Origin: Anaerolineales bacterium | Lineage (GTDB): Bacteria > Chloroflexota > Anaerolineae > Anaerolineales > UBA4823 | Reading direction: 5' to 3' | Length of the DNA stretch: 64,000 nucleotides | Assembly (NCBI GenBank): GCA_027494035.1 | Contig: JAOSJQ010000001.1 | Coordinates: 1,609,675-1,673,674 of the forward strand | Shown: one piece after another, positions 12,723-61,220 of the stretch | Layout: each line of letters starts with the position of its first letter | How positions within the stretch are numbered: position 1 is the stretch's first letter | Translations under genes and position numbers: made by a program | The notes under the pieces: generated by a model | Seen by the model: the letters and a program-made list of their open reading frames with translations, nothing else | Told to the model about the DNA's origin: nothing | Databases searched by the model: none

Positions 12723-12740
12723 GACTTATCTTCCGATCCC

Positions 12741-13064
12741 TCACAAACCCAACTGGGCGCGCCCTTTGGGGGAAATCATCAGCGAGTTCCAGGGCGGATC
12801 CCAAACGAGCTCAACCGAGACGCCGGTGATGCCCGGAACCGAGCGCCACAACACCCGCTCGATTTCTTGCGCAAAACTGGCATGGAGCGGGCAGCCGGGT
12901 GTAGTGAGAGTCATTACAATTTTAAGGCGGCCTTCCTCCGTGATCTCTGTGCTGTAGATCAGACCCAGATCAACGATGTTGATCCCCAATTCGGGGTCGA
13001 TGACTTCCGACAACGCCGCGGTGATCAGCTCTTCTACAATGGGGGTGGATAACAGTTCGGTCAT
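12741..13064 (-). CDS. DUF59 / SufT-like Fe-S assembly protein
   Basis: MTELLSTPIVEELITAALSEVIDPELGINIVDLGLIY...TLTTPGCPL is the classic DUF59 (MIP18) signature. Confidence 0.75.
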   Translation of the reverse strand: MTELLSTPIVEELITAALSEVIDPELGINIVDLGLIYSTEITEEGRLKIVMTLTTPGCPLHASFAQEIERVLWRSVPGITGVSVELVWDPPWNSLMISPKGRAQLGL

Positions 13065-13285
13065 ATATCGCTCCCCAGCACAATCTGGTACGGCAAGGAG
13101 ATCGCCTCGACTGGACAGATTGACTCGCAGATCCCACAGTAGTTGCATGCCTCCGGGTCTGCGACGGCCGCAACGTTTGTGGTGAAGAGCTCCAGGACAT
13201 CTGTAGGGCAGGCGTCGACGCAATCGCCGCAACCCGTGCAGACTTCGTCATCGATTTGAGGGGTCCAGATTGTCATATCATTCAT
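13061..13285 (-). CDS. 2x[4Fe-4S] ferredoxin
   Basis: Two CxxCxxCxxxCP motifs (CTGCGDCVDACP, CNYCGICESICP). ATGA overlap with the DUF59 gene. Confidence 0.8.
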   Translation of the reverse strand: MNDMTIWTPQIDDEVCTGCGDCVDACPTDVLELFTTNVAAVADPEACNYCGICESICPVEAISLPYQIVLGSDI

Positions 13286-13377
13286 CGTTCACCAATTCCT
13301 TTTCTTAGCAAACTCATAGCCGTCTGCCAGCCACTTGTTTGCTGCTACCAGGATAACTGGTGAAAAAAACTTCTGCC

Positions 13378-13391
13378 TTGATATTAATCAA
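13378..13391. promoter_or_regulatory. Perfect FNR/Dnr-type box TTGATATTAATCAA
   Basis: Matches the TTGAT-N4-ATCAA consensus exactly. Lies just past the nirK stop, about 93 nt upstream of the ferredoxin ATG (13285, minus strand). Confidence 0.65.
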
Positions 13392-13398
13392 GTGCGCG

Positions 13399-14892
13399 TT
13401 ATGGGTTTGCCGGTCCCTTACGAAAGATGTCGGGTTGTTCCGGTCCTTCCACGACCAGATAGCCTACCAGACCGCGCTCCGTGCGGCTGAGTGCATGATC
13501 CACCAGAAGATAGGTCCCCGGAACATCCACGCGAAACTCGACCATGACCGCGCCGCCAGGCGGAACGGTTACGGTTTGTACATTAGTCAAAGGAGCGCTG
13601 GTGAGCGAGGCGAAGCTGTACACCCGATCGAAGATTTCACCGATGACGTGGAACGACGAGGTCTTGTTCGGACCGCCAACGCCGAAGAAAATGCGCACGA
13701 CCTCGCCCACTTTGGCGGTGAGGACGTTTTCGTCTTTCGTCAGACCTTTATCTGACCCGTTAAAGATGTAATATTCGGGCATCTCGTGGCTCATCTTATC
13801 GGCGCTGAAATCGAGCTGCCCCGTTGAGCCATAAGCCTGTTCGGTATACAGTTCGCCCTGCATAACGTAATATTCCTTATCAACCGGCGGCAAACCTTCT
13901 TCCGGCTCGACCAGGATCATGCCGTACATGCCGTTGCTGATGTGGTGCGGTACGCTGGGCGTGGCGCAATGATAGACATACAAGCCCACCGCTAACGGCT
14001 TGAAGGTGAAAACATTTTCTTCCCCGGGTTTGGTTTCGGTATAGACCATCCCTCCGCCAGGACCGTTGACTGCGTGCAGATCGATCGAATGCGAAAACAG
14101 GCTTTCAGCCGCGTTGGACAGTTTCAATTCGACGGTATCGCCCAGGCGGACGCGCAACATGGGGCCCGGCACGGTGCCGTTGAAGGTGAAGTAACCGTAA
14201 GTTGTGCCATCGGACAACTGACCGATCACTTCCTTGGCTTCCAGTTCGACCCTTACAATTTGCGGTTCGCGTTCGCCGATCTCCGCCGGGATATCCGCGG
14301 GATGATGGACAACGTTCTCGCCCTGGGCAACCTGAGCTGTCGTTCCAGAGGCTGCCTCCCCCACTTGCAGCGTCCCCCACATGCCTGCCTGGCGATGACC
14401 CGGGACCGCGCAGTAATAGACGTAGCTGCCCGCCTGATCGACCGTGAACTTCAGCGTTACTTGCGTTCCTTTTTCTGTCATTTGACCGGTGGTTTGGTTG
14501 AACTCATCAATCGTCAGGTCGTGCAGCATGCCATCGCCATTGATCACGGTGATTTCAACCGTGTCTCCGGGTTTGGCGGTCAGGGTGGGGTTGACAACCC
14601 CGTCAATGTCGCCGCCTTTACCGATGAAAGCCAACCCATACGTGTCGCTGCTGGTTACCAACGTGTAAGAGACATTCGCCTCGGTTTGGGCTATGGGTTC
14701 GGCTTGTTGGGCTTGCGGCTCCGATGGTTGAACTTGCGCCGCTGGTTGTTGGGCTATTGGCGCCGGTTGTTGGAGCGTTTTCTTTTCTTTTGTGGTGGGC
14801 GGTGGAGTGATCGTGCTGCTTTTTCCCGCACATGCACTGAGAACAAAGACGGCTGCCAGCAAAAGCCCGATCATGTTTCTAGTAGCTTTCAT
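13399..14892 (-). CDS. nirK: Copper-containing nitrite reductase NirK with N-terminal lipoprotein signal and extra cupredoxin domain
   Basis: Lipobox LSAC. N-terminal cupredoxin YVYYCAVPGHRQAGMWGTLQV. NirK core HSIDLHAVNGPGGG and YVYHCATPSVPHHISNGMYGMILVEP. Confidence 0.85.
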   Translation of the reverse strand: MKATRNMIGLLLAAVFVLSACAGKSSTITPPPTTKEKKTLQQPAPIAQQPAAQVQPSEPQAQQAEPIAQTEANVSYTLVTSSDTYGLAFIGKGGDIDGVVNPTLTAKPGDTVEITVINGDGMLHDLTIDEFNQTTGQMTEKGTQVTLKFTVDQAGSYVYYCAVPGHRQAGMWGTLQVGEAASGTTAQVAQGENVVHHPADIPAEIGEREPQIVRVELEAKEVIGQLSDGTTYGYFTFNGTVPGPMLRVRLGDTVELKLSNAAESLFSHSIDLHAVNGPGGGMVYTETKPGEENVFTFKPLAVGLYVYHCATPSVPHHISNGMYGMILVEPEEGLPPVDKEYYVMQGELYTEQAYGSTGQLDFSADKMSHEMPEYYIFNGSDKGLTKDENVLTAKVGEVVRIFFGVGGPNKTSSFHVIGEIFDRVYSFASLTSAPLTNVQTVTVPPGGAVMVEFRVDVPGTYLLVDHALSRTERGLVGYLVVEGPEQPDIFRKGPANP

Positions 14893-15064
14893 TACAGTCT
14901 TTCCCTTCTCATCCTAAGAATATCTAAAGTCTGATTTTCTGAGGCGCTTGTGTTGCACACTTGATCCTCAGCCGGTCGATTAAAGAATCAAACGCTGCCG
15001 AGGCGCGAACCAAACAAGCCCCAAAACAACGATGTAAGCTTAGGTAATTAATTCGGATGTGTAA

Positions 15065-15078
15065 TTGATTTTAATCAA
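15065..15078. promoter_or_regulatory. Perfect FNR/Dnr-type box TTGATTTTAATCAA
   Basis: Exact TTGAT-N4-ATCAA. Lies immediately after the stop of the Crp/Fnr gene and about 175 nt upstream of the nirK ATG (14892, minus strand). Confidence 0.65.
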
Positions 15079-15083
15079 GTTGG

Positions 15084-15761
15084 TTAAAGTTGCGCTTGTT
15101 GGCGGAGAACTTCCAGATCGGTGATGACGATGCGATGGCGGTTAAAACTGATGGCGCCGGCGATTTCCAGGGCGCGCAGCGAGCGGCTGATGGATTCGGG
15201 CGTCGTTGCCAGGTAGTTTGCAATGAGCGCCCGGGTGACGGCTGGATGAGCCAGGGCGGGGTCTTCGATTTGTTCCACCAAAAAGCGGGCGAGCCGGGCT
15301 GTGACCGTGCGCAAAGCCAAGTCTTCCACCTGAACCGTCAGTGCGCGCATGCGCCCCACCAGTCCCTGGATGACCGCCAGGCTCAGTTCGTGGTCTTCCT
15401 GAAGCGCGCGGTTGAATACCTCCCCCGAAATGACCCAGGCTTCTACGTCTGTAACAGCCATCGCGCTGGCGGCGTTGGGCGCATTATCCAGAGCAGCCAG
15501 TTCGTTGAAAGCCTCGCCAGGACCAACGAACCGCAGGATGTACTCCTGACCCTCGGGGGAGAGCTTATAAAGCTTGACGTGACCTTTTTCCAATCCCCAC
15601 AAACCCGCCGATCCTTCTCCCTCCAGGAAAATAATCTGTCCCGCAGAAAAAGAGCGGCAGATTGCCCCCTCAGCCAGGCGTTTCAAGTGGATTTCAGAAA
15701 TGTGAAAAAAACTGGGAATACGTTGCAATAATTTCAGCAAAGGAATGCTATCCTCACTCAT
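15084..15761 (-). CDS. Crp/Fnr-family transcription regulator (Dnr/NnrR-like by context)
   Basis: cNMP-binding-like beta-roll (GQIIFLEGEGSAGLWGLEKGHVKLYKLSPEGQE) plus C-terminal HTH (TRALIANYLATTPESISRSLRALE). No N-terminal Cys cluster seen. Confidence 0.8.
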   Translation of the reverse strand: MSEDSIPLLKLLQRIPSFFHISEIHLKRLAEGAICRSFSAGQIIFLEGEGSAGLWGLEKGHVKLYKLSPEGQEYILRFVGPGEAFNELAALDNAPNAASAMAVTDVEAWVISGEVFNRALQEDHELSLAVIQGLVGRMRALTVQVEDLALRTVTARLARFLVEQIEDPALAHPAVTRALIANYLATTPESISRSLRALEIAGAISFNRHRIVITDLEVLRQQAQL

Positions 15762-15981
15762 CCGCCTGGCGCCAGTTTGTTGTGGAAATCGTTGCTCTCG
15801 CCAATGATAACCGATAAACACCCGGGCTGGTCATGTAAATCCTTTGGCAGTAAGAAAATCCACCAAATTGCTTAAGGAATTTCCGCATTTATTGGATGAC
15901 AGATCCGGCGGGATAAGTTAAGCTTGACGTACTCAACAGGTGATGAGAAATAGAAGGCAAAGCTCTCATTTGGAGGCGACG

Positions 15982-16521
15982 ATGGTTCAAAGGATTTTGG
16001 TGCCGTTAGACGGTTCTAAGCGGGCAGAGTCAGCCCTGCCTTTGGCTTGTTCACTTGCGAGCAAAGACGACGCCCAAATGATCCTGCTCCACATTTTGGA
16101 GTACCCCTCCGAGGTGTATTCGGGTTTGGCGTATTCAGGATTCGCCCCCCGGCCTCTTGCAGACCCCGCAGTGAATGAAAAGACCCAGGAGAAGAAAGAA
16201 GCCATCTACAACAAGGTGAAAGGCTACCTGGAAGAGACGGCTGCGAGAATCGGCTCCAGCGCGCTAAGCGTATCGATTGAAATTCACGAAGGCCCGGTCG
16301 TTGAAACGATATTAAGTTCTATCGAGAAATTGGGGGTCAATCTGATTGTAATGTCGTCAACCGGCGAAGATCGCAGCCCGTGGATGTTAGGCGCCATCGC
16401 GGATCGCATCTTACGCGAAGCCTATGCGCCGGTGGTGCTGTTGAGAGAAGGTCCCGGCGGTTTGGGTCCGGATTGCCCCGCCCTCCAGGGAGAATCTTTG
16501 CCGAAACTTATCGAAAGCTAG
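15982..16521 (+). CDS. Universal stress protein (UspA family)
   Basis: MVQRILVPLDGSKRAESALPLA...NLIVMSSTGEDRSPWMLGAIADRILREAYAPVVLL. A GGAGG SD precedes the internal Met. Confidence 0.8.
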   Translation: MVQRILVPLDGSKRAESALPLACSLASKDDAQMILLHILEYPSEVYSGLAYSGFAPRPLADPAVNEKTQEKKEAIYNKVKGYLEETAARIGSSALSVSIEIHEGPVVETILSSIEKLGVNLIVMSSTGEDRSPWMLGAIADRILREAYAPVVLLREGPGGLGPDCPALQGESLPKLIES

Positions 16522-16522
16522 A

Positions 16523-17044
16523 ATGAATAGAGAGGATAATGGTATGGACAAGAGCAATGAGCAACGCATTAAGTATTCCGAACTGACGCCAGCCGGCATC
16601 GAGCCGCTGATCAAACTCGAGGCTTACATCAAGCACTCGGGGTTGGAGTCAGAGCTGGTAGAGCTGGTAAAATTGCGCGCCTCCCAGATCAACGGCTGCG
16701 CCTTTTGTATTGATATGCACACCAAGGATGCGCGCAGCCACGGAGAAAGCGAACAACGCCTGTATGGGATAAGCGCCTGGCACGAGTCGTCTTTCTACAC
16801 CGAGCGTGAGCGGGCAGCCCTCGCCTGGTGCGAAGCGGTCACAAAAGTCAGCGAGAGCCATGTGCCGCTGGAAGTCTACGAGCAAACCCGCCAGCAGTTC
16901 AGCGAAAAGGAGCTGGTGGACCTGACGCTGGCAGTGATCGCGATCAATTCCTGGAACCGCCTGGCGATCAGCTTCCGCACCCCGCCTGGCTCTTATCAAC
17001 CCGACCACCCGGTCGCGCAAAAAACGGTCCTGAGCAGGAATTGA
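16523..17044 (+). CDS. AhpD-like / carboxymuconolactone decarboxylase-family protein
   Basis: LRASQINGCAFCIDMH: the CxxC-containing AhpD/CMD motif. Confidence 0.75.
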   Translation: MNREDNGMDKSNEQRIKYSELTPAGIEPLIKLEAYIKHSGLESELVELVKLRASQINGCAFCIDMHTKDARSHGESEQRLYGISAWHESSFYTERERAALAWCEAVTKVSESHVPLEVYEQTRQQFSEKELVDLTLAVIAINSWNRLAISFRTPPGSYQPDHPVAQKTVLSRN

Positions 17045-17105
17045 TCTCAGGATGGCTTGAGTGAGCCTTTGCTGGATGTTTTTCTGAAAGCAGCGAGCGA
17101 ATCTG

Positions 17106-21865: not shown

Positions 21866-24023
21866 ATGGAGTATCGGTTTTCTGACGTAGTCTCGATCCC
21901 CAACCTTCAACAAATGCTGGTTTCTTTCTTTTCCGGCTGCGGGATAACGGCTGAAATAGTGGATTCAGGCGGTCAAGTCGTTGCGGCAGCGGGTCAGCAT
22001 CTTTTCGAGAAATTTCATCTTGGGGATCACCGGTCTGCCCAATTACGCTGGCAGAGCGGTGAAGAAGGCAATTTCCCAAATAACGGCGAAGGCGCAAGGC
22101 GCTGTGAACTCCTCGACGGGTTTTTCGTGTACGCCTGTGACATTCGCGTTGAAAACCAGAAAATCGCCACCCTCTATCTCGGTCCGGTTTTTCGCGCCGC
22201 GCCGAATGAAGATCGTTTGCGTCTGCTGGCGCGGGAACACGGAATTGACGAAGCGCCTTTTCTACAGGCAGCCCAAGAGGCGCCAGTCGTATCGGAAGCG
22301 CAAGCTGCGGGTTACATTGCACTGCTCGTTCAACTCGTCCAGCGCCTGGCAGAAAAGGGACTCAGCGAACTGCGATTGACGGCATCGATCGCAGACGCGC
22401 AGGCGCGCCAGGAAAAAACCCAACAGGTTTATCACGAGTTGGAAACCCGCGTCCGCGAGAGGACCGAAGAGTTGGAGCGAGTTAACCTGGCGTTACAAGA
22501 GAGCGAGCAGCGCTTCCGGGTTGCGCTGATCGACACACCGGTGGTCGTATTTCACCAGGATCCAGACCTCCGCTATTCTTGGATCTACAACCCTCAAAAT
22601 TATGCCCATCAGCCCATTATCGGTAAAACGGATGCGGATCTGTTTTCCGCGGAAGATGCCCTGCGTCTGGAGGCGTTAAAAAAACGCGTCATGACAACCG
22701 GGCTGTTGACCCGTGAGGAGGTAGCGATAACGGGGGACGCCGGGACATCGTTTTACGATATGACCCTTGACGCCCTATATGACGCAAATGGCGCCGTCGC
22801 AGGGCTGACGTGCGCCGCGACGGATATCACCGAGCGCAAGCATATCGAAGAAGAGATGCGCAAACGCTTGGCGGAGAGCGAGGGCATCCAGCGGATCGCC
22901 AAAGGCTTGTTACAGAAAATCGGCTTAGAGGAGGTGTTAGAGATCGTTTGTACCGAAGCGATGAACTTGCTCGGCGCAAAAGGCAGCGCAGTTTTGCTCC
23001 TAGACGAGGACGGGTGGCTGAAGCTCACCCATCGCGTCGGGTCGCCCGAATATAAATTAGACCACCTACACGTGACAGGGTCTTTTGCCGGTCAGGCAGT
23101 CCAGACGGGCAGCCATGTGTGGGTAAGCCGACAGATAGATGCCCCTGACGACGCTACAGATCAGTGGCGCGGTTATCCCTGGACGCCGGGTCTGCTTTCG
23201 ATGCTGTCGGTGCCTTTGAAAGTGGATCTGCAAACGATCGGGGTGTTGAATATCCTGGATAAACCGGGCGACCTCACCGAGGAAGACGTGCGGATTATCA
23301 ACCTGTTTGCCGACCAGGCCGCGATCATTATTGAGCATGTGCGCTTGCAGCGCCGGGCTGAGCAGTTTGCCGTATTGGAAGAGCGCCAGCGCCTGGCGCG
23401 CGAGCTGCATGATTCGGTGACACAGGCGCTTTACGGTGTGACCTTGTATGCAGATGCAGCCAGCCTGGCGTTCTCAAGGCAGCAATGGGAGGCGCTTGAG
23501 CGCAATTTGCAAGAGGCGCGCAACATGGCGCGCGAAGCGATGTACGACATGCGCTTATTGGTTTTCGAGCTGCGCCCATTGATGCTGGAAAAGGAAGGGG
23601 TTGCCGCAGTCCTGCGCGCCAGACTGACTGCAGTTGAAGCGCGGGCTGGGTTGAAAGCTGATCTTCTCGTCGAAGGTGAAAGGCGTTTGCCGATTGGCAT
23701 CGAAGAGCAAATCTATCGGATTGTCCAAGAGGGCTTGACTAATGTGATTAAGCACGCCAAAGCCAGCGTGGTTCAAATTCGTCTGGTATTCGACGAGGAA
23801 GTTGTCCATCTGGAAATTAAAGATGACGGGCTGGGTTTTGATCCAGAGAAGGATACCGACCAGAGTGGCGGGATGGGGCTGCAGGGTATCCAGGAAAGAG
23901 TTCAGCAAGTGGGCGGGCGCCTGGAGATCGAGAGCGCGGCTGCGAAAGGGACGCGTTTATCCGTGACGATCCCGACCCGCGCGCTGATTTCGAAAAAAAT
24001 CAACCGGGGATGCAGGGAGGTAG
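21866..24023 (+). CDS. Sensor histidine kinase (N-terminal sensor, PAS, GAF, HisKA_3, HATPase)
   Basis: ERQRLARELHDSVTQALY (HisKA_3 H-box) and GGMGLQGIQERV...GTRLSVTIP (ATPase). As sequenced it runs on into the response regulator. Dropping one A from A7 (23993-23999) gives a TAG at 24021-24023. Confidence 0.75.
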
Positions 24024-24028
24024 CCGAT

Positions 24029-24709
24029 ATGGGAAAAGGAGCGATCAAGCTTTTGGTGGTCGATGATCAAAGCATCGTCCGGAAAGGCATCTGCGCGCTG
24101 CTGGAACAGGTCGATGACATCGATGTGGTGGGAGAAGCCTCGAACGGCATAGAAGCGATTGCCCAGGCTAAAACGCTTCACCCTGATGTGATCTTAATGG
24201 ACCTGGTGATGCCCAAGATGGATGGCATCACCGCGATCCAGCAGATCCTGGCGCATCAGCCACGCATGCGCATCATGGCTCTAACGAGTTTTGTTGCCGA
24301 AGACAAAGTCCTCCCAGCCATCAAAGCCGGCGCGCTGGGTTATCTGCTCAAAGACTCCGAACCCGAAGAGCTCATTATGGCGATTCGCAAGGTGAGCCGC
24401 GGGGAACCGTCGTTGCACCCGACTGTGGCTAAAATGATGCTCGAAGAATTGAGCCAGCCGGTCAAGCAGCCGCTGACGCCCGATCCGTTGACCGAGCGCG
24501 AAGTGGATGTGGTGCGTTTGGTGGCGCAAGGGCTCAGCAACCGCCAGATCGCCGACCAGCTCGTCATTGGAGAAGCCACCGTTCGCACGCATGTGGGCAA
24601 TATCCTCAATAAGCTGCATCTGGCAAATCGCGTCCAAGCCACACTCTATGCGCTGCGCGAGGGGTTGACCTCACTGGACGACCAGAATCGTCCCGACAAC
24701 CAGGAATAG
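24029..24709 (+). CDS. NarL/LuxR-family response regulator
   Basis: MGKGAIKLLVVDDQSIVRKG..DVILMDLVMPKMDG (receiver) plus LTEREVDVVRLVAQGLSNRQIADQLVIGEATVRTHVGNILNKL (LuxR HTH). An AGGGAGG SD lies 8 nt upstream. Confidence 0.8.
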   Translation: MGKGAIKLLVVDDQSIVRKGICALLEQVDDIDVVGEASNGIEAIAQAKTLHPDVILMDLVMPKMDGITAIQQILAHQPRMRIMALTSFVAEDKVLPAIKAGALGYLLKDSEPEELIMAIRKVSRGEPSLHPTVAKMMLEELSQPVKQPLTPDPLTEREVDVVRLVAQGLSNRQIADQLVIGEATVRTHVGNILNKLHLANRVQATLYALREGLTSLDDQNRPDNQE

Positions 24710-25392: not shown

Positions 25393-26592
25393 ATGGTCAT
25401 GAAACATTATAAATATTTGATTGTTGGCGGCGGGCTGACGGGCGACGCAGCCGTCCGCGGAATTCGCGAACTGGACTCGGAAGGTTCTATTGGCATGTTC
25501 AGCCGGGAGCTTGACCCGCCCTATATGCGACCTAACCTCTCCAAGGGATTGTGGAAAGGTCGCCCAGTCGAAAAGATCTGGCGCAACACCCAGAATATGA
25601 ACGTGGAATTGCACCTGGATAGCAAGATTGTCGAGCTCGACCCAGCCAGCAAAACCGTCCGTGGTGGACAGGGGAACGCGTACACATACGACAAATTGCT
25701 CCTGGCAACCGGGGGGGCGCCGATCCGGCTGCCTTTTGGGGGCAGCGATATCATTTATTATCGAAGTTTCCAGGATTACCTGCGTTTGCACAAATTGAGT
25801 GAAGAAAAAGAACGGTTTCTGGTGATCGGCGGCGGCTTCATCGGGTCCGAGATCGCCGCGGCGCTGACGATGGCGGGTAAGAAAGTCGTTATGGTCTTCC
25901 TCGAGGATGCTATCGGCGCGAATATTTTCCCCAGCGATTTATCCCATTTTCTGAACGACTTTTATCGCCAAAAGGGCGTGGAGGTGGCGCCCGGAGACGC
26001 CGTCGCCAGCCTTGAAAAAACGGGGGAAAGCTTCTCAGTGCGCACTCGAGAAGGGCGCTCCTATGAGGTGGACGGCGTGGTGGCTGGAATTGGGATCCGA
26101 CCGAACATTGAGCTTGCCCAGCAAGCCGGTTTGCAGCTAGACAATGGGATTGTTGTCGACGACCAGTTGCGAACCTCAGCTCCCGATGTTTATGCTGCCG
26201 GCGATGTGGCGAATTTCTTTCATTCCACGTTAGGGCGGCGCGTGCGCGTGGAGCATGAAGACAACGCCATCCAGATGGGCAAACTGGCGGGTCGCAATAT
26301 GGCTGGCGCGACCGATACGTATACCCATGTCCCAATGTTTTACTCCGACCTGTTCGAGCTTGGCTTTGAGGCGGTCGGAGAGTTGAGCAGCAAGCTGAAG
26401 ACGGTGGCGGACTGGCAGGAACCGTTCAAAGAGGGCGTTGTGTATTACCTGGATGGAAACCGGGTGCGCGGCGTTTTGTTGTGGAATGTTTGGGACACCG
26501 TGCCAGCCGCCCGCGCGCTGCTCGCCGAACCCGGTCCATTTGAACCGGCTGAGCTTAATCGCAGCTTATTGCAAGAAAGGAAAGAGGGATGA
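25393..26592 (+). CDS. FAD-dependent pyridine-nucleotide-disulfide oxidoreductase (ferredoxin-reductase/AIF-like)
   Basis: Two Rossmann GxGxxG motifs (YLIVGGGLTGDAA; FLVIGGGFIGSEIAAA) and AAGDVA. Confidence 0.8.
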   Translation: MVMKHYKYLIVGGGLTGDAAVRGIRELDSEGSIGMFSRELDPPYMRPNLSKGLWKGRPVEKIWRNTQNMNVELHLDSKIVELDPASKTVRGGQGNAYTYDKLLLATGGAPIRLPFGGSDIIYYRSFQDYLRLHKLSEEKERFLVIGGGFIGSEIAAALTMAGKKVVMVFLEDAIGANIFPSDLSHFLNDFYRQKGVEVAPGDAVASLEKTGESFSVRTREGRSYEVDGVVAGIGIRPNIELAQQAGLQLDNGIVVDDQLRTSAPDVYAAGDVANFFHSTLGRRVRVEHEDNAIQMGKLAGRNMAGATDTYTHVPMFYSDLFELGFEAVGELSSKLKTVADWQEPFKEGVVYYLDGNRVRGVLLWNVWDTVPAARALLAEPGPFEPAELNRSLLQERKEG

Positions 26593-26915
26593 AGTTCATA
26601 AATCTTTTAGAAGACTGGCAGTTCAACCCGAAGGGACCTCACGCCGAACCCTTGCACGTCGACCGGAACGGCAGGGCAATCCTGTTCTGCTTGAATCCGG
26701 GGCAGTCGATCCGTGAGCACAACGTGCCCAGCTCGCCCTTCTACATCGTCATCCTCAGCGGTCGAGGTGTATTCGCGGGCAGCGACGGCGAAGAAAAGAC
26801 GTTCGGTCCAAATACGCTGTTGGTGTTCGATCCCGCTGAACAGCATTTCATTCGCGCCCTGGACGAGCTGGTCTTTGTGGGCTTTTTGCATGGCGCGCCT
26901 GGCGCGCAGACATAA
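26589..26915 (+). CDS. Cupin-domain protein
   Basis: 108 aa. G.SIREHNVPSSPFYIVILSGRGVF...HFIRALDELVFVGFLH fits a single cupin barrel. ATGA-type overlap with the upstream gene. Confidence 0.6.
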   Translation: MKFINLLEDWQFNPKGPHAEPLHVDRNGRAILFCLNPGQSIREHNVPSSPFYIVILSGRGVFAGSDGEEKTFGPNTLLVFDPAEQHFIRALDELVFVGFLHGAPGAQT

Positions 26916-26992
26916 TCATGGATACTGTGCTGATCTTGCGCAGTTCCCGATAATCACACATCTTCCATATCTTGGATTGTAAGGAGAGAAAA

Positions 26993-27409
26993 ATGGCAGT
27001 TCGCGAATCATCCGCATTTTGGAAAGGCAATTTACCAGAAGGCGCAGGCAGCATGCGCCTGGGTTCTGGAGCATACGAGGGTTCTTACAGCTACGCCTCG
27101 CGGTTCGAAGAAGCTCCCGGAACCAATCCGGAAGAGCTGATCGGCGCGGCGCACGCAGGGTGTTTCTCGATGTATCTCGCGGCGATCCTGTCCAAAGCCG
27201 GTCACGTCCCGACGCGCATCGACACCACCGCCAAAGTGCACCTCGGGGAAGGTCCCAAGATTAAATTGATCGAGCTTTCCACCGTGGGTGACGTTCCCGG
27301 TATCGATGAGGAGACCTTCAAGCAGTTCGCCGAACAGGCGAAAACGGGCTGCCCCGTTTCACAAGCCCTATCGGCTGTCGAGATGAGTCTGACAGCCCGC
27401 CTCGCTTGA
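26993..27409 (+). CDS. osmC: OsmC-family peroxiredoxin
   Basis: TNPEELIGAAHAGCFSM...AKTGCPVSQAL: the two conserved OsmC Cys motifs. Confidence 0.85.
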   Translation: MAVRESSAFWKGNLPEGAGSMRLGSGAYEGSYSYASRFEEAPGTNPEELIGAAHAGCFSMYLAAILSKAGHVPTRIDTTAKVHLGEGPKIKLIELSTVGDVPGIDEETFKQFAEQAKTGCPVSQALSAVEMSLTARLA

Positions 27410-27423
27410 GATGAGCAAAGATA

Positions 27424-28107
27424 ATGACGGGCGAGAACATCCCTGAATTATGGGAGTGGGCTGAGTATTATTGACCCTGGTGTTACGTTGCAGCCGTGCG
27501 CTTGCACAAGGTTATGCCCGAATACCAGGGACGGGTCCGGCTGCGGGTGCGCGCCTTCCCCTTAGAGATCTACGGAGGAGGCCCGCCCGATCGAAACGAG
27601 CTGGAACTGGAAATCTGGCTGGCTGCCATACAGGAACCCGAAGCAGCCTTCAAACCGTTCAAAGAGGAGTGGCTCACCACCACCTTGCCAGCTTTTGAAG
27701 GCGCGTGGTGCGCCTTTCAGCAAGGCGAGGCGTTCGGTTATGAATTTGATCTGCGCATCCGCAGGGCTTTTTTCTACGAAAGCCGCAACATCGGACGCCC
27801 AGAGGTCATCTTAGAGCTTGCCCGCGAAGCGGACCTGGATCTGGATCGTTTCACCCGAATGTTCAACAGCGGTGAAGCGCGCAAAGCGGTCCTCGAGGAA
27901 GGGCGGCTGGGTAAAGAGGTTTATAAAGTCCGCGGCACCCCCACGGTGATGCTGGCGGACGGAAAGAAGCTGCGTCACCCACTGGCTTATCCAAACATGG
28001 AAAATGGAAAGATCGTGGCGGTGAGCAAGCTGCCCTGTTGCGGCGAAGGCTGCTACCAAGCCACGCGCGACCTGTTCGAACAAGCTTTACAACACACAAA
28101 GGAGTAA
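27424..28107 (+). CDS. DsbA/FrnE-like thioredoxin-fold oxidoreductase with in-frame TGA (candidate Sec) at the first redox position
   Basis: ATG 27424 is in frame with track ORF 27496..28107 across a single TGA (27472-27474): MTGENIPELWEWAEYY-TGA-PWCYVAAVRLHKV... This aligns with the family motif (W)SD(F/Y)xCPWCY. The track ORF alone lacks the active site. Confidence 0.6.
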
Positions 28108-28111
28108 CACG

Positions 28112-28564
28112 ATGGAATTCAAAGTCCCCCATGCGCTGAAAGTCGAACACGATCAGTTGCATCACGATCTCACTCTAGCCATTGAATCCGGAGGGCAGAC
28201 CGGAACCGCAGCCCAAGTAGTGGCTGACGCCCTCCATGCGCACTTCGATGGCGAAGAAAAATACGCCCTCCAACCCCTGGGTCTGCTGCCCGCCATCGCG
28301 GAGGGTAAAATTACCCCCGAAATGGCGCAAGTGCTCGAGTTGACCGACACGCTGAAGGCAGAAATGCCCCGCATGTTGGAAGAACACCAGGTCATCGTGG
28401 ATGCGTTGAAGCAACTGATCGCTGCCGCCAAGCAGGAAGGGAAGCTGCAGCACGCCGATTTCGCCGAAAAGCTGATGCTGCACGCTCAAAGTGAAGAAGA
28501 GGTCGCCTATCCTGCAGCGCTCGTGATGGGAGAGTATCTGAAGCTAAAACTCGGTCGGGCTTGA
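28112..28564 (+). CDS. Hemerythrin-like/HHE-type helical metal-binding protein (tentative)
   Basis: 150 aa with spaced His/Glu (LKVEHDQLHHDL, LHAHFDGEEKY, LEEHQVI, LHAQSEEEVAYP). Confidence 0.5.
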   Translation: MEFKVPHALKVEHDQLHHDLTLAIESGGQTGTAAQVVADALHAHFDGEEKYALQPLGLLPAIAEGKITPEMAQVLELTDTLKAEMPRMLEEHQVIVDALKQLIAAAKQEGKLQHADFAEKLMLHAQSEEEVAYPAALVMGEYLKLKLGRA

Positions 28565-28735: not shown

Positions 28736-31066
28736 ATGAGCAACAGCATACCCACAACGGAAGATAAGGCTGGCGACCAGGAGCTTTCTCTGTGGTGGAG
28801 AAATGGCGTCATCCTGGTCATGATCTTTGGTTTCTCCGTCTTGATCTGGCTCTCCATCCGGGCGTACCGTGACGGTCCGCCCATCCCGGAGCGGGTGGTC
28901 GACGCGGCTGGCGCTACTGTTTTCACCGGCGCCGACGTGATGGACGGGCAGCACGTTTTCCTGCGCTACGGGCTGATGGAGAACGGCACGGTCTGGGGGC
29001 ACGGCGCGTACCTGGGTCCCGATTTCACCGCGGAGTATTTGCACACGCTGGCGCTCGACGCCCAAGAAGCCGCGGCGCAGCAAGGCTACCAGCGTAGTTG
29101 GAACAACCTGACCTCCACCGAGCAAGCAAAGGTGAGCGCCCAGGTGCAGCAAGCGCTCAAAGAAAACCGCTATGACCCCGCGACGCACGTCCTGACGTTC
29201 ACCGCGGCAGAGGCGGCTTCGTTTCAGAGCCAAATCCAGAAGTGGAGCGATTACTTTGCCGCCCCAACCAGCAGCGCCGGTCTGCCGCCCAAGTTCATCA
29301 GCGACCCAGAAGAACTGCGCCAGTTGACCGCCTTCTTCGCCTGGAGCGCCTGGGCTGCGAATGCCAACCGGCCCGGTCTGCCTTACTCCTACACCAACAA
29401 CTTTCCCTACGATCCCGCGGCTGGCAACACCCCGCCAACCGCCGCGCTGGTTTGGAGCGCCTTGAGCTTGATTGGCTTGCTCGGCGGCACGGCGGTGGTG
29501 CTGTTTGCCTTTGGCAGGTTCGACTATCTGGGCTGGCACGGAAAACATGAGCATGTCCACCCGCAAATGTTGCCCGGCGTCACCACCGACAGCCAGAAAG
29601 CCATGGTCAAATTCTTCGTGCTGGTCGCCCTGCTCTTTTTGATGCAGGTGTTCGTGGGCGCCGCGGTCGCCCACTACCGCGCCGACCCGGGCGCGTTTTA
29701 CGGCATCGATCTATCGCGCCTCCTGCCCAGCAACATCGTTCGCACCTGGCACTTGCAGCTCATGGTGTTCTGGATCGCCACCGCGTTCATCGCCGGGGCG
29801 CTGTTTCTGGCGCCGGCGCTGGCGGGCAAGGAGCCTGAGGGGCAGGTGAAGTGGATCAACCTGCTGTTTGGCGCCCTGATCGTCGTCACCGGCGGCAGCC
29901 TGCTCGGTGAAATCCTGGGCATCAACCAGCTCCTCGGTCAGCTCTGGTTCTGGCTGGGACATCAGGGTTGGGAGTATCTCGACCTGGGGCGCCTGTGGCA
30001 GGTGCTGCTGGTCATCGGGCTGCTAATCTGGCTTGTCCTGTTGAGCCGCAACATCGCGGCTGCCCGGCGCAACCCCGAACACCGCGAAATCGCCTCGCTC
30101 TTTTTGTACGCCGCCATCAGCATCCCCCTGTTCTACCTGCCCGCCATGTTTTTCGGCCGCGGCAGCACTTTCACCGTGGTGGATACCTGGCGCTTCTGGA
30201 TCATCCACCTGTGGGTCGAGGGCTTCTTCGAACTGTTCGCCACGGTGATGGTAGCGCTTATTTTCTACCTGCTGGGGATCGTGACGCGCCAGACGGCAGC
30301 CCGCGTCGTCTACCTGGACGCCATCCTTTACCTGGGAGGCGGCATCATCGGCACCGGTCATCACTGGTACTGGACCGGGCAGGCGAACATCTCGCTGGGG
30401 CTGAGCGCGGTCTTCTCGGCGTTGGAAGTCATCCCGCTCACCCTGCTGACGCTGGATGCCTGGGATTTTATCAAGCTGACGCGCGAAAAATGCGATATCT
30501 GTGGACAGTCAGTTTCCATCCCGCACAAATGGACCTTCTACTTCCTGATGGCGGTCGGTTTTTGGAACTTCGTCGGCGCGGGGGTGTTTGGCTTTCTGAT
30601 CAACCTGCCCATCGTAAGCTACTATGAGGTGGGCACCGTCCTCACGCCGAACCACGGGCACACCGCCATGATGGGCGTTTTCGGGATGCTGGCGATCGCG
30701 CTGCTGGTTTTCGTCCTGCGGCAGGCGTCGTCCGAGGCGCAATGGGCGCGCACCGAAAAGTTCGTGCGGGTTTCCTTCTGGGGGCTGAACGCCGGGCTGG
30801 CGCTGATGGTGCTCACCAACCTGTTCCCGGGCGGGGTGCTGCAACTCATCGACGCCGTGAAGAACGGCTACTGGCACGCCCGCAGCGCAGCCTTCCTGGG
30901 GGTCGGGATGATGAAATGGATCGAATGGGCGCGTTTGCCGGCAGACCTGATTTTCATCTTCTTGGGCGTCGTGCCCATCGCGATCGCCGCCGGACTGACG
31001 TACCTGAACATGCGGAAATCGAAAGGGGATGCGACGTATGGCTTGCAGCCGACCCCGAACGCGTAG
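28736..31066 (+). CDS. norZ: Quinol-dependent nitric oxide reductase (qNOR, NorZ/NorB-long)
   Basis: 776 aa. N-terminal TM plus periplasmic extension (GHGAYLGPDFTAEYLH), then a heme-copper oxidase core with IGTGHHWYWTG and NHGHTAMMGVFG. Confidence 0.9.
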   Translation: MSNSIPTTEDKAGDQELSLWWRNGVILVMIFGFSVLIWLSIRAYRDGPPIPERVVDAAGATVFTGADVMDGQHVFLRYGLMENGTVWGHGAYLGPDFTAEYLHTLALDAQEAAAQQGYQRSWNNLTSTEQAKVSAQVQQALKENRYDPATHVLTFTAAEAASFQSQIQKWSDYFAAPTSSAGLPPKFISDPEELRQLTAFFAWSAWAANANRPGLPYSYTNNFPYDPAAGNTPPTAALVWSALSLIGLLGGTAVVLFAFGRFDYLGWHGKHEHVHPQMLPGVTTDSQKAMVKFFVLVALLFLMQVFVGAAVAHYRADPGAFYGIDLSRLLPSNIVRTWHLQLMVFWIATAFIAGALFLAPALAGKEPEGQVKWINLLFGALIVVTGGSLLGEILGINQLLGQLWFWLGHQGWEYLDLGRLWQVLLVIGLLIWLVLLSRNIAAARRNPEHREIASLFLYAAISIPLFYLPAMFFGRGSTFTVVDTWRFWIIHLWVEGFFELFATVMVALIFYLLGIVTRQTAARVVYLDAILYLGGGIIGTGHHWYWTGQANISLGLSAVFSALEVIPLTLLTLDAWDFIKLTREKCDICGQSVSIPHKWTFYFLMAVGFWNFVGAGVFGFLINLPIVSYYEVGTVLTPNHGHTAMMGVFGMLAIALLVFVLRQASSEAQWARTEKFVRVSFWGLNAGLALMVLTNLFPGGVLQLIDAVKNGYWHARSAAFLGVGMMKWIEWARLPADLIFIFLGVVPIAIAAGLTYLNMRKSKGDATYGLQPTPNA

Positions 31067-38293: not shown

Positions 38294-38328
38294 ATTCTTC
38301 ACATCTGGCGATGTTATAATCCTCGAAC

Positions 38329-39641
38329 ATGCGCAAGCGGAGCATTTTTATCGTTATCGGCAGCCTGGGATTGCTGAGCATGGTTTGCCTGGCAGGAGCG
38401 GCTGCAACGCAGATTCCACAAGTCAACGAGCGCCTGGTTTGGCGGCTTGAAAGTCTGGCAGCCGCGGCGCGCCGGAGGATCAACCCACCCCAACAGGTGG
38501 TCTTTGTGCCGGTGGAGGTTTCAACCCCTGACGCAACGGTTGAGTCTGCGCCGCCCCGGCAGTCACAACGATCGTTCAACTGACTGATACGCCCAACCCC
38601 GCGCCGCCGCAAGAAACAGCCACACCTTCGCCCACACCCACGCCGTCGGCAACGCCCCTGCCCGAGCGCGTCGTCCTGGAGGGGGTTGTGCATGAATATC
38701 AGCAGTTCAACAACTGCGGACCGGCGAACCTGGCGATGACGCTTTCCTTCTGGGGCTGGCGCGGCGATCAGCGCGATACGCGCAGCTTTCTGCGCCCCAA
38801 CCTCAAGGTGGATGATAAAAACGTCAACCCTTCCGAAATGGTGGAATTTGTCGAAAGATTTGCGGGAATGCGGGCTTTTGTGCGCTACGGCGGAGACCTG
38901 GATCTGCTGCGGCGTCTGGTCGCAGCCGGGTTTCCGGTGCTGATCGAGGCGGGGCATCATCCTCCTGACGATTGGTGGATGGGACATTACCTGGTTGTGA
39001 GCGGTTATGACGACCAACAGCAGAAGCTCATCGTGCAGGACTCGCTCGTGAGCCCCGACCTATCGATGGGCTACGCTGATCTGGCTGAGGGATGGTGGCG
39101 CGATTTTAATTATGTGCTGATCGTAATCGCTCCACCGGAGCGCAACGCGGAAGCGCTGGAACTGATGGGACCGTTCGCCGATCCGCAGCAGAGCTTTCAG
39201 ATCGCGGCGCTGAAAGCCAGCCAGGAGATCCCCGAACTGACCGGGCGCGCCCAGTTTTTCGCCTGGTTCAATCTGAGCTCCAGCCGGGTCGGCTTGGGTG
39301 ACTACAGCGGGGCGGCGCAGGCTTACGACCAGGCGTTCGCGGTCTATCCAACCCTTCCGGAGGCGATGCGCCCCTATCGGTTGATGTGGTATGTAGCCGG
39401 ACCCTATGAAGCCTATTATTACACCGGCAGATACGAAGACGTGGTTCAACTGGCAAACACGACCTTTGCCTGGGTGGGGCAGCCAGTGTTGGAAGAAAGC
39501 TATTACTGGCGCGGGATGGCAAACCTGGCGCTGGGGAAACAAAGCCTGGCGATTGCCGATTTTCGCAAAGCAGTTGGACTGAACCCGAACTATGCGCCCC
39601 CGCGCGACGAATTGTTGCGACTCGGCGAGGCGCTGCCCTGA
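38329..39641 (+). CDS. Membrane-anchored C39-like (papain-fold) peptidase + TPR-like domain, paralogue 1; frameshift at a C4 run
   Basis: ORFs 38329..38583 and 38688..39641 join if one C is added at 38554-38557 (...VESAPP|PAVTTIVQLTDTPNP...). Catalytic-type motifs QQFNNCGPANLAM and WMGHYLVVSGYD. Confidence 0.7.
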
Positions 39642-39654
39642 TTGAAATATTGAA

Positions 39655-40992
39655 ATGATGAAATCACACGCGCGCAGACGTTTACTCTCGATTTTCCTGA
39701 TCCTGCCAGCCTGTCTGTTGCTGGTTGGGCTGTACTTCCTGCCGCCGATCCATTCCCGGCTGGCTTGGAGGATGGAGGAGGCGTCGCTCAGGATCGGCTA
39801 TCTGCTCAACCCGCCGGCGCACGCGGTCTTTGTGCCGACCGAGCGCGGGCTGGCGCCGCCGCAGGTGACGGTGATCTCGCAGAGCAGCCCGACCAGCCCA
39901 GCCAACTCACCCAGCTCACCCAGCCCCGCGCCGACTCAGGTCGGTCCGACCGAGACGCCGGCTCCGACGCCCAGCCCGACCCTCACCCCGGCGCCGCTGC
40001 CCGAGAAGGTCGCTCTGAGCGGGGTGGTTTACCAGAACCAGCACGGGCGTTACAATTATTGCGCCCCAGCCAACCTGGCGATGGCGCTTTCCTTCTGGGG
40101 TTGGAAGGGCGACCAGGACGTAGTGGGACCGCAGATCAAGCCGGACCCTAAAGACAAGAATGTGATGCCCTACGAAATGGTGGATTATATCGAGAGCCAG
40201 ACCGGTCTGCAGGCGGCGCTGCGGGTTGGCGGCGACCTGGATCTGCTGCGGCGCTTTGTCGCAGCCGGTTTCCCGGTGCTGATCGAGAAAGGCACTTACC
40301 TGCGCGATCTGACCGGAGTGGTAAGCTGGATGGGACATTACCAGGTGGTGACGGGGTATGATCAGCCGGGCGGTTTTTTCATCACCCAGGATTCGTTCGT
40401 CGGCGCCGATTTTCAGATAAGCGAAGCAGACCTCCTCAAGGGGTGGCGGGCGTTCAATTATGCCTATATCATTGTTTATCCGCCGGAGAAAGAAACGCAG
40501 GTGATGGAACTGCTCGGTTCGAATGCGGACGAGACGCAGAACTATCAGAACGCCGCGCTGATGGCTTCGAATGAGATCTACGGCTTGGCTGGGAGCGACC
40601 AGTATTTCGCCTGGTTCAACCGCGGCTCCAGCCTGGCGGCGCTGCAAGATTACGGCGGCGCGGCTGAAGCTTTCGACGAATCGTTCAAAGTCTATCAGAG
40701 CCTAGCAGAGAACGACCGCCCCTGGCGGATGTTGTGGTATCAGACCGATCCCTATTTCGCCTATTACGGCGTGGGGCGCTACTACGACCTGCTCTACCTG
40801 GCGGATGGAACGTTGAACGCTATGCAGGGAGACCCGAACCTGGAGGAAAGCTATTACTGGCGCGGCATGGCAAAATCCGCGCTGGGAGATCCGGCTGGAG
40901 CGATAGAAGATTTCCGCGCCAGTCTGCGCTATCATGCTGGCTTTCAGCCCGCGCTGTACCAGCTCAAACTGCTTGGGGTAGAAAACCCCTGA
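39655..40992 (+). CDS. Membrane-anchored C39-like peptidase + TPR-like domain, paralogue 2
   Basis: TM anchor, P/S/T-rich linker, YNYCAPANLAM, WMGHYQVVTGYD, and a C-terminal EESYYWRGMA...A..DF TPR-like tail. Confidence 0.75.
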   Translation: MMKSHARRRLLSIFLILPACLLLVGLYFLPPIHSRLAWRMEEASLRIGYLLNPPAHAVFVPTERGLAPPQVTVISQSSPTSPANSPSSPSPAPTQVGPTETPAPTPSPTLTPAPLPEKVALSGVVYQNQHGRYNYCAPANLAMALSFWGWKGDQDVVGPQIKPDPKDKNVMPYEMVDYIESQTGLQAALRVGGDLDLLRRFVAAGFPVLIEKGTYLRDLTGVVSWMGHYQVVTGYDQPGGFFITQDSFVGADFQISEADLLKGWRAFNYAYIIVYPPEKETQVMELLGSNADETQNYQNAALMASNEIYGLAGSDQYFAWFNRGSSLAALQDYGGAAEAFDESFKVYQSLAENDRPWRMLWYQTDPYFAYYGVGRYYDLLYLADGTLNAMQGDPNLEESYYWRGMAKSALGDPAGAIEDFRASLRYHAGFQPALYQLKLLGVENP

Positions 40993-41002
40993 GTCAAAAA
41001 AC

Positions 41003-42289
41003 ATGCGTAGATCTGTCCAAACGTTGCTGACGATCTTAATCGTGCTGGCTATCTGGGCGGGGATCCTGTGGATGCTCTCTTCGCCCAGTCCAAACTGGCG
41101 TCTGTCCGCGCTGACGGGTCGCATCAAATACGCCTTGAACCCGCCGGAGCAGGCGGTCTTCGTCCCGGCCTCGCAAGCCACGGAGGTCGCGCCTGCCGTG
41201 ACTAGAGCCGCGCTTAGTCCAACCGCCACCATCCGCCTGGCTACCCCCACTCTCGAACCGACCGTTCCAGCGGCGACCGCCACCACGACGCTGACCCCGA
41301 CGCCCATGCCAGCCCGAGCCAGCCTGAGCGGGGTGACGCACATGTATCAAATGTGGAACAACTGCGGTCCGGCAAACCTGGCGATGGCGCTCAGTTTCTG
41401 GGGCTGGCAGGGAGACCAACGAACGACGGCAGCCTTCCTGAAGCCCAATGAGCGCGACAGAAACGTTATGCCCTATGAAATGGAAACTTTCGTCGAACAA
41501 GAAGCCGGGCTGGAGGCGTTTACCCGCACCGGCGGCGACTTGACGATGATCAAAGCGTTCGTTTCAGCCGGTTATCCGGTCATCGTGGAAAAAGGCTTCG
41601 AAGGCGTAGGGTTCGATGGGTGGATGGGTCACTATCAGGTGGTGACGGGCTACGACGATGCAACGAATCGTTTCACGGTCCAGGATTCGTACAAAGGTCC
41701 AGACTACCCGGTCAAATACGAGGACTTCCTACGTGACTGGCGGGCATTCGACTACACTTATCTGGTCATCTACCCGCCGGAGCGGCATCAGCAAATCTTG
41801 GATATCCTGGGGCTGCATGCCTATGACAATTTCAATAATCGCTTTGCGCTGCTGAAAACTGAGGAAGAGCTGCCAAACCTCTCTGGCAGGGATCGCTTTT
41901 TTGCGCTGTTCAACCAGGGCACCGACCTGGTGGCTTCCCAGGAATATTCCCAGGCGGCTGCGGCTTACGACGCGGCGTTTGCGGCTTACGCCGAACTCCC
42001 TGAAAACGCCCGACCGTGGAGGATGCTCTGGTATCAGACCGGGCCGTATTTTGCGTACTATTTCACTGGACGTTACATAGATGTGATCACTCTAGCCACC
42101 CAGACGCTCGAAGCATCCAGCGAGCAAGTGCTGGAAGAGAGCTTTTACTGGAGGGCGCGCGCCCTCCTGGCAAGCGGCGACGAAGCTTCCGCTATCGAGG
42201 ACCTGCAAGCCTGCCTGGAAGCGCATCCAGGCTTCGAGCCGTGCGAGGAGGAGCTGTTTAAGCTGGGGATCGAACCGGTTCCCAATTAG
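41003..42289 (+). CDS. Membrane-anchored C39-like peptidase + TPR-like domain, paralogue 3
   Basis: Same architecture: MWNNCGPANLAM, WMGHYQVVTGYD, EESFYWRARA. Confidence 0.75.
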   Translation: MRRSVQTLLTILIVLAIWAGILWMLSSPSPNWRLSALTGRIKYALNPPEQAVFVPASQATEVAPAVTRAALSPTATIRLATPTLEPTVPAATATTTLTPTPMPARASLSGVTHMYQMWNNCGPANLAMALSFWGWQGDQRTTAAFLKPNERDRNVMPYEMETFVEQEAGLEAFTRTGGDLTMIKAFVSAGYPVIVEKGFEGVGFDGWMGHYQVVTGYDDATNRFTVQDSYKGPDYPVKYEDFLRDWRAFDYTYLVIYPPERHQQILDILGLHAYDNFNNRFALLKTEEELPNLSGRDRFFALFNQGTDLVASQEYSQAAAAYDAAFAAYAELPENARPWRMLWYQTGPYFAYYFTGRYIDVITLATQTLEASSEQVLEESFYWRARALLASGDEASAIEDLQACLEAHPGFEPCEEELFKLGIEPVPN

Positions 42290-60916: not shown

Positions 60917-61220
60917 GACGTATTCTCACCTCAATGGGCTTGAATTTCTGCTCGTTCATAAGCCGTCTCTCTGGGAAGAAATTCGAATTGTGATCGAGAC
61001 AGTAGATGCAGACCTTTGCCGAACAAAGGTCTCCAAAGAAAAGACCATGATGGGTAAGTTGTTGTTTAGTCCGGTCGAACTCAATTCGACCTTCAACAAA
61101 TTATTCAGAAGCCGGTCGTGGACCGAGAGCCGAGTGAGCTATTGGGTAACAAAGAATGAGAAGCTGATACGGAAAACCTTGATGTTATCAGCCGACGAAC
61201 AGAAGAGGAAGATCAAATGA
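60903..61220 (+). pseudogene. BglII/BstYI-like type II restriction endonuclease, N-terminal ~100 aa only
   Basis: PSLWEEIRIVIE...VSKEKTMMGKLLFSPVELNSTFNKLFRSRSW parallels the BglII N-terminus as I recall it (PQLWKEIEETLL...ASKVGSLIFDPVGTNQYIKDELVPKHW). The catalytic D...E-x-Q region is missing. Composition switches to host-like GC right after 61220. Confidence 0.45.

Follow-up and report, generated by a model that had tools for sequence, protein, structure and literature searches.

The gene at positions 27,424 to 28,107 of a 64,000-nucleotide stretch of DNA from an Anaerolineales bacterium (the whole stretch is hereafter called the window) most likely encodes a selenoprotein. We read it as a 227-residue cytoplasmic thiol-disulfide oxidoreductase of the DsbA/FrnE-like type, in which the nucleophile is selenocysteine (Sec) in the motif U17-P-W-C20, inserted under the direction of an RNA hairpin; we put the probability of this reading at about 0.88. 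That the in-frame TGA at 27472 is a real Sec codon, and the gene a selenoprotein gene, is highly probable on comparative grounds, because Sec and Cys pair at this codon across some 140 loci, the codons upstream of it are under selection, the hairpin downstream is conserved, and the lineage shows evidence of Sec machinery. The gene and the elements within it are as follows.

27424–28107, plus strand: predicted coding sequence for a DsbA/FrnE-like selenoprotein of 227 residues, Sec17 included, with the stop codon TAA at 28105–28107
27472–27474, plus strand: UGA, the predicted Sec17 codon, first position of the U-P-W-C redox motif (27472–27483)
27487–27507, plus strand: conserved hairpin resembling a selenocysteine insertion sequence (SECIS), alignment columns 16–36 (U of the UGA = 1), starting 12 nt downstream of the UGA
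27475–27530, plus strand: extended helix, a strain-specific alternative fold in which CCCUGGU (27475–27481) pairs with ACCAGGG (27524–27530) and encloses a GUGC/GCAC stem
28036–28053, plus strand: C-terminal CX4C motif, C205-C206-G-E-G-C210, conserved across the family

TGA and cysteine codons alternate at one position

The 684-nt gene is a single reading frame interrupted once. From the ATG at 27424–27426, 16 sense codons (MTGENIPELWEWAEYY) lead to the sole in-frame TGA, after which translation resumes as PWCYVAAVRL and stays open to the TAA. The GTG at 27496, where the open reading frame (ORF) track begins the gene, sits inside this same frame, and sequence and translation bear out an earlier note on this DNA, made from the letters alone, that one TGA separates the two starts. 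Since the annotated start falls after the TGA, the annotated version lacks the active site, as that note had also claimed. Full-length Cys homologues (223–252 amino acids) align end to end with the read-through protein.

We compared 147 related loci, comprising 67 from species-representative genomes of the Genome Taxonomy Database (GTDB) and 80 from metagenomes. The motif is present at 140 of these, mostly in Chloroflexota. At the homologous codon, 95 of the 140 carry TGA and 45 carry TGC or TGT; among the 60 species representatives with the motif, TGA is found in 39 and a Cys codon in 21. An in-frame UGA that aligns with Cys is the pairing expected of bacterial selenoproteins. The earlier note had placed the TGA at the first Cys of CPWC and had called for an alignment with Cys-containing homologues; in that alignment, the Cys forms carry TGC or TGT exactly at the TGA of the window.

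Sec forms predominate in the family tree. A neighbor-joining tree of 113 distinct proteins (77 Sec and 36 Cys) contains at least 14 switches between Sec and Cys, and the parsimony state at its midpoint root is Sec. Sec is the majority state, and probably the ancestral one, in this clade, which is mainly Chloroflexota and above all Anaerolineae. The nearest relatives of the window gene in the tree (loci L159 and L160) are themselves Sec forms. A single strain with TGA among Cys-coding relatives, and with no conserved hairpin downstream, would have pointed to a simple nonsense mutation according to the earlier note; this pattern is not borne out, as L159 and L160 carry TGA and the downstream hairpin is conserved.

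The codons upstream of the TGA are conserved as protein. The peptide IPELWEWAEYY precedes the TGA across the Sec loci. Among 64 distinct Sec sequences, the entropy of the 11 codons upstream of the TGA is 0.445, 0.162 and 1.031 at codon positions 1, 2 and 3, respectively. This concentration of variability at third positions indicates that the stretch and the sequence after it are translated as one frame. Coding conservation is thus seen on both flanks of the UGA, as the entropy pattern upstream and as a DSBA domain that runs across the site.

A conserved hairpin follows the TGA

Directly 3' of the UGA lies a stem-loop with a small, G-containing apical loop. Its pairs are G16:C36, U18:A35, G19:C34, C20:G33, A21:U31 (R21:Y31 in the family), G22:C30 and C23:G29; the bulged residues are U17 and U32, and C24-G25-U26-G27-C28 (27495–27499) forms the apical loop. 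Across 73 distinct Sec sequences, 84.9% of cells in hairpin 16–36 are paired, against 16–63% in slid controls, and RNAalifold recovers the upper stem (21–23:29–31) independently. Members of a divergent clade with the motif UPWS form a hairpin around the same G25-U26 on another lower stem, GUGG/CCAC.

The hairpin is more constrained in Sec genes than in Cys genes. Third-codon entropy at columns 21, 24 and 30 is 0.73, 0.62 and 0.44 in the Sec set against 1.31, 1.48 and 1.18 in the Cys set, while third positions flanking the hairpin are equally free in both. Of 78 Sec sequences, 60 have a hairpin energy of -5 kcal/mol or lower, as do 17 of the 35 Cys sequences (Mann-Whitney p = 3e-5), a statistic that, like the one for synonymous sites, ignores phylogeny. 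The synonymous-recoding z-score of the short hairpin is about 0 in the window strain; this test is conservative and uninformative, because its codon weights came from the same segments.

The conserved element differs from the SECIS first proposed for this gene. The earlier note had chosen a stem of GUGC (27496–27499) and GCAC (27504–27507) with the loop GCUU. This stem is present as placed and forms locally at -5.1 kcal/mol, but it is the overlapping hairpin at 27487–27507 that is conserved: in the family alignment pairing in the GUGC/GCAC inner helix reaches 70.5%, and most sequences lack pairs 23:40 and 24:39. An outer CCCUGGU/ACCAGGG pairing had been suggested as well. Its 5' strand is at 27475–27481, as suggested, but its 3' strand is at 27524–27530 and not at 27513–27519. 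With this outer helix, the extended fold reaches a minimum free energy of -27.7 kcal/mol (z = -2.3 against synonymous recoding). The outer helix was also rejected as a conserved element, as columns 6:57 pair in 10 and columns 8:55 in 28 of the 73 family sequences.

The window hairpin resembles the SECIS of E. coli fdhF (L161, read from the genome). Both begin at the same distance from the UGA, both have GUUGCAG at positions 16–22 (window 27487–27493), and both have a bulged U17 and an apical-loop GU, which is G23U24 in fdhF and G25U26 in the window. In contrast to fdhF, the window hairpin has an upper stem longer by 3 bp, U32 as an additional bulge and a loop of 5 nt. We take G23, U24 and U17 of the fdhF element to be SelB determinants. 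With GUUGCAG at identical positions, the window hairpin might be recognized by E. coli SelB.

These features are consistent with a SelB-dependent route of Sec insertion. At the UGA, the hairpin at 27487–27507 would be bound by SelB, recruiting SelB-GTP with Sec-tRNA(Sec), and Sec would be inserted in place of termination.

Evidence for selenocysteine machinery in the lineage

The lineage has a tRNA-Sec. We detected one with both ARAGORN and Rfam at L036:851–943 on the plus strand, with the anticodon TCA (RF01852, 70.9 bits; threshold 47). A TGA-form orthologue lies 9.1 kb downstream of this gene in the Anaerolineae metagenome-assembled genome (MAG) Bin_34; none of the ORFs adjoining the tRNA gene is a sel gene. 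The window organism is UTCFX2, an Anaerolineae bacterium known as a MAG from anammox granules (PMC5460018). For both UTCFX2 and UTCFX1, the listing for PWY0-901 (bacterial selenocysteine biosynthesis) is 3 of 3 reactions (Supplementary Data 3, PMC5460018). UTCFX1 (L072) also has the TGA form of the gene. Sec machinery in the window organism is supported by these observations, which stop short of closing the matter.

The window itself was scanned for other Sec-related features. A seryl-tRNA synthetase gene lies at 50415–51689 on the plus strand; the bacterial enzyme charges tRNA-Sec as well and is not specific to the Sec pathway. The scan gave no convincing second TGA-interrupted ORF with a redox motif in the window, and the best candidate, at 37088, was rejected as a selenoprotein, being merely two adjacent genes that share a frame.

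A DsbA-like fold with two cysteine motifs

With U read as C, the protein matches the Pfam DSBA domain (PF01323) over residues 11–181 (E 1.5e-16; 61.2 bits, with the cutoff at 25.6). The TGA thus falls inside the domain. No NCBIfam model matches the protein. For structure, we used an AF2 model of the Cys homologue P0001, which is 83% identical to the window protein (pLDDT 91.9, pTM 0.90). The model has a strand at 8–13, C17, a helix at 18–34 and a helical insert at about 57–165. Residue 17 is therein at the N-terminus of helix 18–34, the standard CxxC position. The P0001 model thus has the arrangement of a DsbA fold: CxxC (UxxC in the window protein) at the N-terminus of helix 1 and a helical insertion in a thioredoxin fold.

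The nearest solved folds found with Foldseek, all cytoplasmic DsbA-like proteins, are 2in3, YjbH, FrnE, DsbM, kappa-class glutathione S-transferase and HCCA isomerase. Sequence resemblance to these is weak; the best match among structures is 2in3 (E 2.3e-6), with FrnE at E 3e-4. The domain across the site and the DsbA-like top folds of the Cys homologue model agree with the assignment to DsbA/FrnE-like oxidoreductases made in the earlier note.

The protein is presumably cytoplasmic. On inspection, its N-terminus is polar (MTGENIPE) with no hydrophobic segment, only 7 residues of the ORF precede strand 1, and the N-terminus runs straight into that strand. No DsbB-type gene was found among the Pfam-annotated neighbors. 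We therefore rejected a periplasmic DsbA oxidase of the DsbA/DsbB type on the basis of the polar N-terminus and the lack of a DsbB-type gene among those neighbors.

The second cysteine motif is near the C-terminus. C205 and C210 of the CX4C are invariant in family alignment A1 and invariant or nearly so in alignment A3. In some members, the second Cys of the active-site motif is replaced by Ser, giving UPWS (L058, L141–L153) or CPWS (L030, L038, L133), and at L131 the motif is U-L-L-C. All Ser variants inspected retain the CX4C, which could thus supply the resolving thiol.

Alternative explanations of the TGA

Dual output is the alternative that survives best, and we consider it very improbable. 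Under it, translation would mostly terminate at the UGA, a downstream start would yield a DsbA-like domain with no active site (e.g., a YjbH-like adaptor), and the Sec protein would be a minor product. Bacterial Sec insertion is commonly described as inefficient, the in-frame GTG 27496 and an ATG at 27514 are available as starts, and the nearest folds include DsbA-like adaptors of the YjbH type. However, the 16 upstream codons and the hairpin are both under selection, so the read-through product must matter, and the starts chosen by gene callers vary between homologues.

A nonsense mutation, leaving a pseudogene, is effectively refuted by the comparative data. The TGA would then terminate translation, and a product without CxxC would be made from GTG 27496 or ATG 27514. 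Gene callers do annotate the gene in this manner (P0002, 197 amino acids), and the window holds no Sec machinery. Yet the TGA is at the same codon in the 95 loci, which encode 77 distinct proteins differing by up to about 40%, while the 11 codons upstream keep their amino acids as their third positions vary. Cys-form homologues are full length, and the closest relatives also have TGA.

Read-through of the UGA without Sec, by near-cognate insertion of Trp or Cys or by a reassigned code, is just as hard to credit. It draws on the fact that Sec is here deduced from comparative data, which equally counts against our own reading. TGA is, however, the commonest stop in the organism, ending 21 of 48 called genes, among them the OsmC gene just upstream, whose stop TGA (27407–27409) is 14 nt ahead of ATG 27424; the codon is thus not reassigned. 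The site is the catalytic Cys of CxxC and alternates only with Cys codons, and the lineage has a tRNA-Sec and an annotated Sec pathway.

A sequencing or assembly error that turned TGC or TGT into TGA has a negligible chance: although 7 indels and 2 substitutions across 20.6 kb separate the window from another assembly of this organism, so that one of the two carries frameshift-type errors and the window assembly is not error-free, none of the differences touches the TGA, the gene with its TGA is identical over all 684 nt in six assemblies (JGI, NCBI, ENA, Logan) from different samples and pipelines, and the change is a substitution rather than a homopolymer indel, as the earlier note had maintained.

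Several further points weigh against a hairpin-directed selenoprotein. Besides the neglect of phylogeny in the Sec-versus-Cys hairpin statistics, the hairpin is short (7 pairs and 2 bulges, -5.6 kcal/mol in the window strain), and its covariation is modest, with double changes at 21:31 and 16:36 only; the strongly conserved peptide restricts variation. In the window strain, the GUGC/GCAC fold is about equal to it in local energy and far stabler when extended. An Rfam scan of 27380–27620 gave no match at E values up to 10. Neither ARAGORN nor Rfam found tRNA-Sec in the 64-kb window, where the only tRNAs at Rfam gathering thresholds are tRNA-Met and tRNA-Gly, and ARAGORN detected none in most of the 1.4 Mb of related loci. 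SelA, SelB and SelD were not found with E. coli queries (tblastn, E 1e-5) in the window and 1.4 Mb of related loci, a search space apart from the rest of the UTCFX2 genome. The UTCFX2 pathway table is an automated prediction with selB and selC outside its coverage (PMC5460018).

Relation to known DsbA-like proteins

DsbA-like proteins with UxxC (COG2761, PF01323) were described as a new selenoprotein family, with nine sequences, in a Sargasso Sea study of 2005 (PMC1088965); the earlier note was correct to recall that such proteins had been predicted in metagenomic surveys. Members from Anaeromyxobacter, Desulfovibrio and Desulfotomaculum came next. A survey of 2016 put the number of DsbA-like Sec genes at 45, from 41 organisms, and in a review of 2026 the family is named "DsbA-like protein form 1" (PMC1794560, PMC5029168, PMC13188914). 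No report of biochemical characterization of UxxC DsbA-like selenoproteins turned up, although no search was aimed at one.

The window protein shares with DsbA-like protein form 1 the Pfam domain, Sec as the first residue of a UxxC motif where homologues have Cys, and a short stem-loop, with a G in its loop, that closely follows the UGA. It differs in belonging to a mainly Chloroflexota clade with a Sec majority. Because predictions of UxxC DsbA-like selenoproteins go back to 2005, our finding is not new in kind and opens no new category. New here are the Chloroflexota clade with its Sec majority, the systematic truncation of its members by gene callers, and a conserved SECIS-like hairpin other than the one proposed.

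Among the known proteins close to this one is FrnE of Deinococcus radiodurans (PDB 5cnw and others). Its segment WSDIACPWCYIG aligns with WAEYY[U]PWCYVA, and the two proteins share a DsbA fold, a CPWC-type motif with the same flanks (W..CPWCY), the lack of an evident signal peptide and a second CX4C near the C-terminus. FrnE is a cytoplasmic disulfide reductase whose C-terminal CXXXXC helps to regenerate the active site (PMC8945050). In contrast, identity is only about 17% (phmmer E 3e-4), FrnE has Cys where the window protein has Sec, and the CX4C of the window protein is at the start of the last helix (residues 205–210; helix 208–228 in the model) whereas that of FrnE is in a flexible tail.

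Two other proteins are close in fold. The putative protein disulfide isomerase 2in3 of Nitrosomonas europaea is the top fold (Foldseek E 2.7e-8, TM 0.70–0.78), and DsbM, a cytosolic disulfide reductase of Pseudomonas aeruginosa, is among the nearest (Foldseek E about 5e-7). Both differ from the window protein in being Cys proteins, with 18–21% identity to it.

Public annotation truncates the Sec forms

Public annotation systematically truncates the Sec forms of this family: gene callers stop at the UGA and record a fragment of 197–203 amino acids without the active site. The record for UTCFX2 is P0002, a 197-residue "hypothetical protein"; in a protein database search it matched the downstream part of the gene with 100% identity. 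Of the 120 best database homologues, about 21 are likewise gene calls of 197–213 amino acids without the active site. These truncated homologues (P0002, P0076, P0086 and a subset of P0091–P0120) start at VAAVRL, VRLHK or MPEYQ, just past the TGA.

Public records are thus wrong for this gene and for many of its orthologues. With correct annotation, Anaerolineae, a common group in wastewater, anammox and soil communities, would gain a widespread selenoprotein, and the Sec form implies a need for selenium in these organisms. The natural Sec/Cys pairs, the UxxS variants and a tightly linked flavoprotein would also make a convenient system in which to ask what Sec gives to an enzyme of the DsbA fold.

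Gene neighborhood and proposed function

The gene is flanked by redox genes on the same strand.

25393–26592, plus strand: pyridine-nucleotide-disulfide oxidoreductase, FAD/NAD(P)H type (Pfam Pyr_redox_2 and AIF_C), the proposed electron donor
26589–26915, plus strand: Cupin_2 protein of 108 amino acids (Pfam), in the same gene string
26972–27409, plus strand: OsmC-family peroxiredoxin (TIGR03562, 166.5 bits), a candidate substrate or partner
28112–28564, plus strand: hemerythrin-like protein of 150 amino acids, directly downstream (PF01814, E 4.8e-5, 24.3 bits, below the cutoff of 25.3)
28736–31066, plus strand: quinol-type nitric oxide reductase (qNOR; NorB_cytochrome_c-like 203 bits, COX1 177 bits)

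Domain searches thus recover the redox-stress neighbors named in the earlier note, OsmC, hemerythrin-like protein and qNOR, with the hemerythrin-like match just under its cutoff.

The flavoprotein is the most persistent neighbor. In 41 of the 81 loci with enough flank, its gene precedes the DsbA-like gene by no more than 2.5 kb and on the same strand, and the Cupin_2 gene is within 6 kb in 43 of the same 81. Hemerythrin genes are also found near the orthologues in L159 and L160. The window organism and its close relatives share the gene order PocR-PAS-GAF histidine kinase, GerE-type response regulator, flavoprotein, Cupin_2, OsmC and the Sec-containing DsbA-like protein (Sec-DsbA); an extra response regulator, consisting of a receiver domain only, follows the GerE-type regulator in the organism's own assemblies.

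By analogy with FrnE and DsbM, and from the gene order, the protein would be a cytoplasmic disulfide (selenenylsulfide) reductase. The adjacent flavoprotein would recharge Sec-DsbA from NAD(P)H, possibly through the CX4C, and Sec-DsbA would in turn serve defense against peroxide or nitric oxide (nitrosative) stress, with OsmC as a candidate client. A specific relay from flavoprotein through Sec-DsbA to stress defense is doubtful, drawn as it is from gene order and analogy, and adjacency to OsmC, confined to the closest relatives (7 of 58 Sec loci), tells against it as well. More speculative still is the broader idea that Sec-DsbA is the hub of an undescribed Chloroflexota stress system. In such a system, electrons might pass from NAD(P)H through the flavoprotein, of the AIF/ferredoxin-reductase type, to Sec-DsbA (with its CX4C) and on to OsmC or to S-nitrosated or oxidized clients, under PocR-PAS-GAF two-component control and with co-located qNOR and hemerythrin; Cys would repeatedly have taken the place of an ancestral Sec.

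Other features of the window were noted in passing. At 21866–24709, the histidine kinase and response regulator form one ORF of 947 amino acids, which is two genes in the other assembly (L001:4354–7196). Further upstream, at about 11900–17050, is a cluster related to nitrogen oxides and metals. It includes a multicopper (NirK-like) protein (13399–14892), ferredoxin, FeS-assembly proteins of the Mrp/ParA type, CopD, TusA, DUF2249, a CRP-family regulator and Usp. The CMD family includes known Sec forms; in the CMD/AhpD-like gene at 16523–17044, no in-frame TGA candidate was seen. Downstream, at about 38300–42289 on the plus strand, are three tandem paralogous Peptidase_C39_2 genes (437, 445 and 428 amino acids), the first two with faint TPR matches. 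A restriction-modification pair, consisting of an N6_N4 methyltransferase and a BglII-type endonuclease, lies at 59939–61220 on the plus strand, and past it the longer contig carries an MgtC gene and then an IS66-family transposase.

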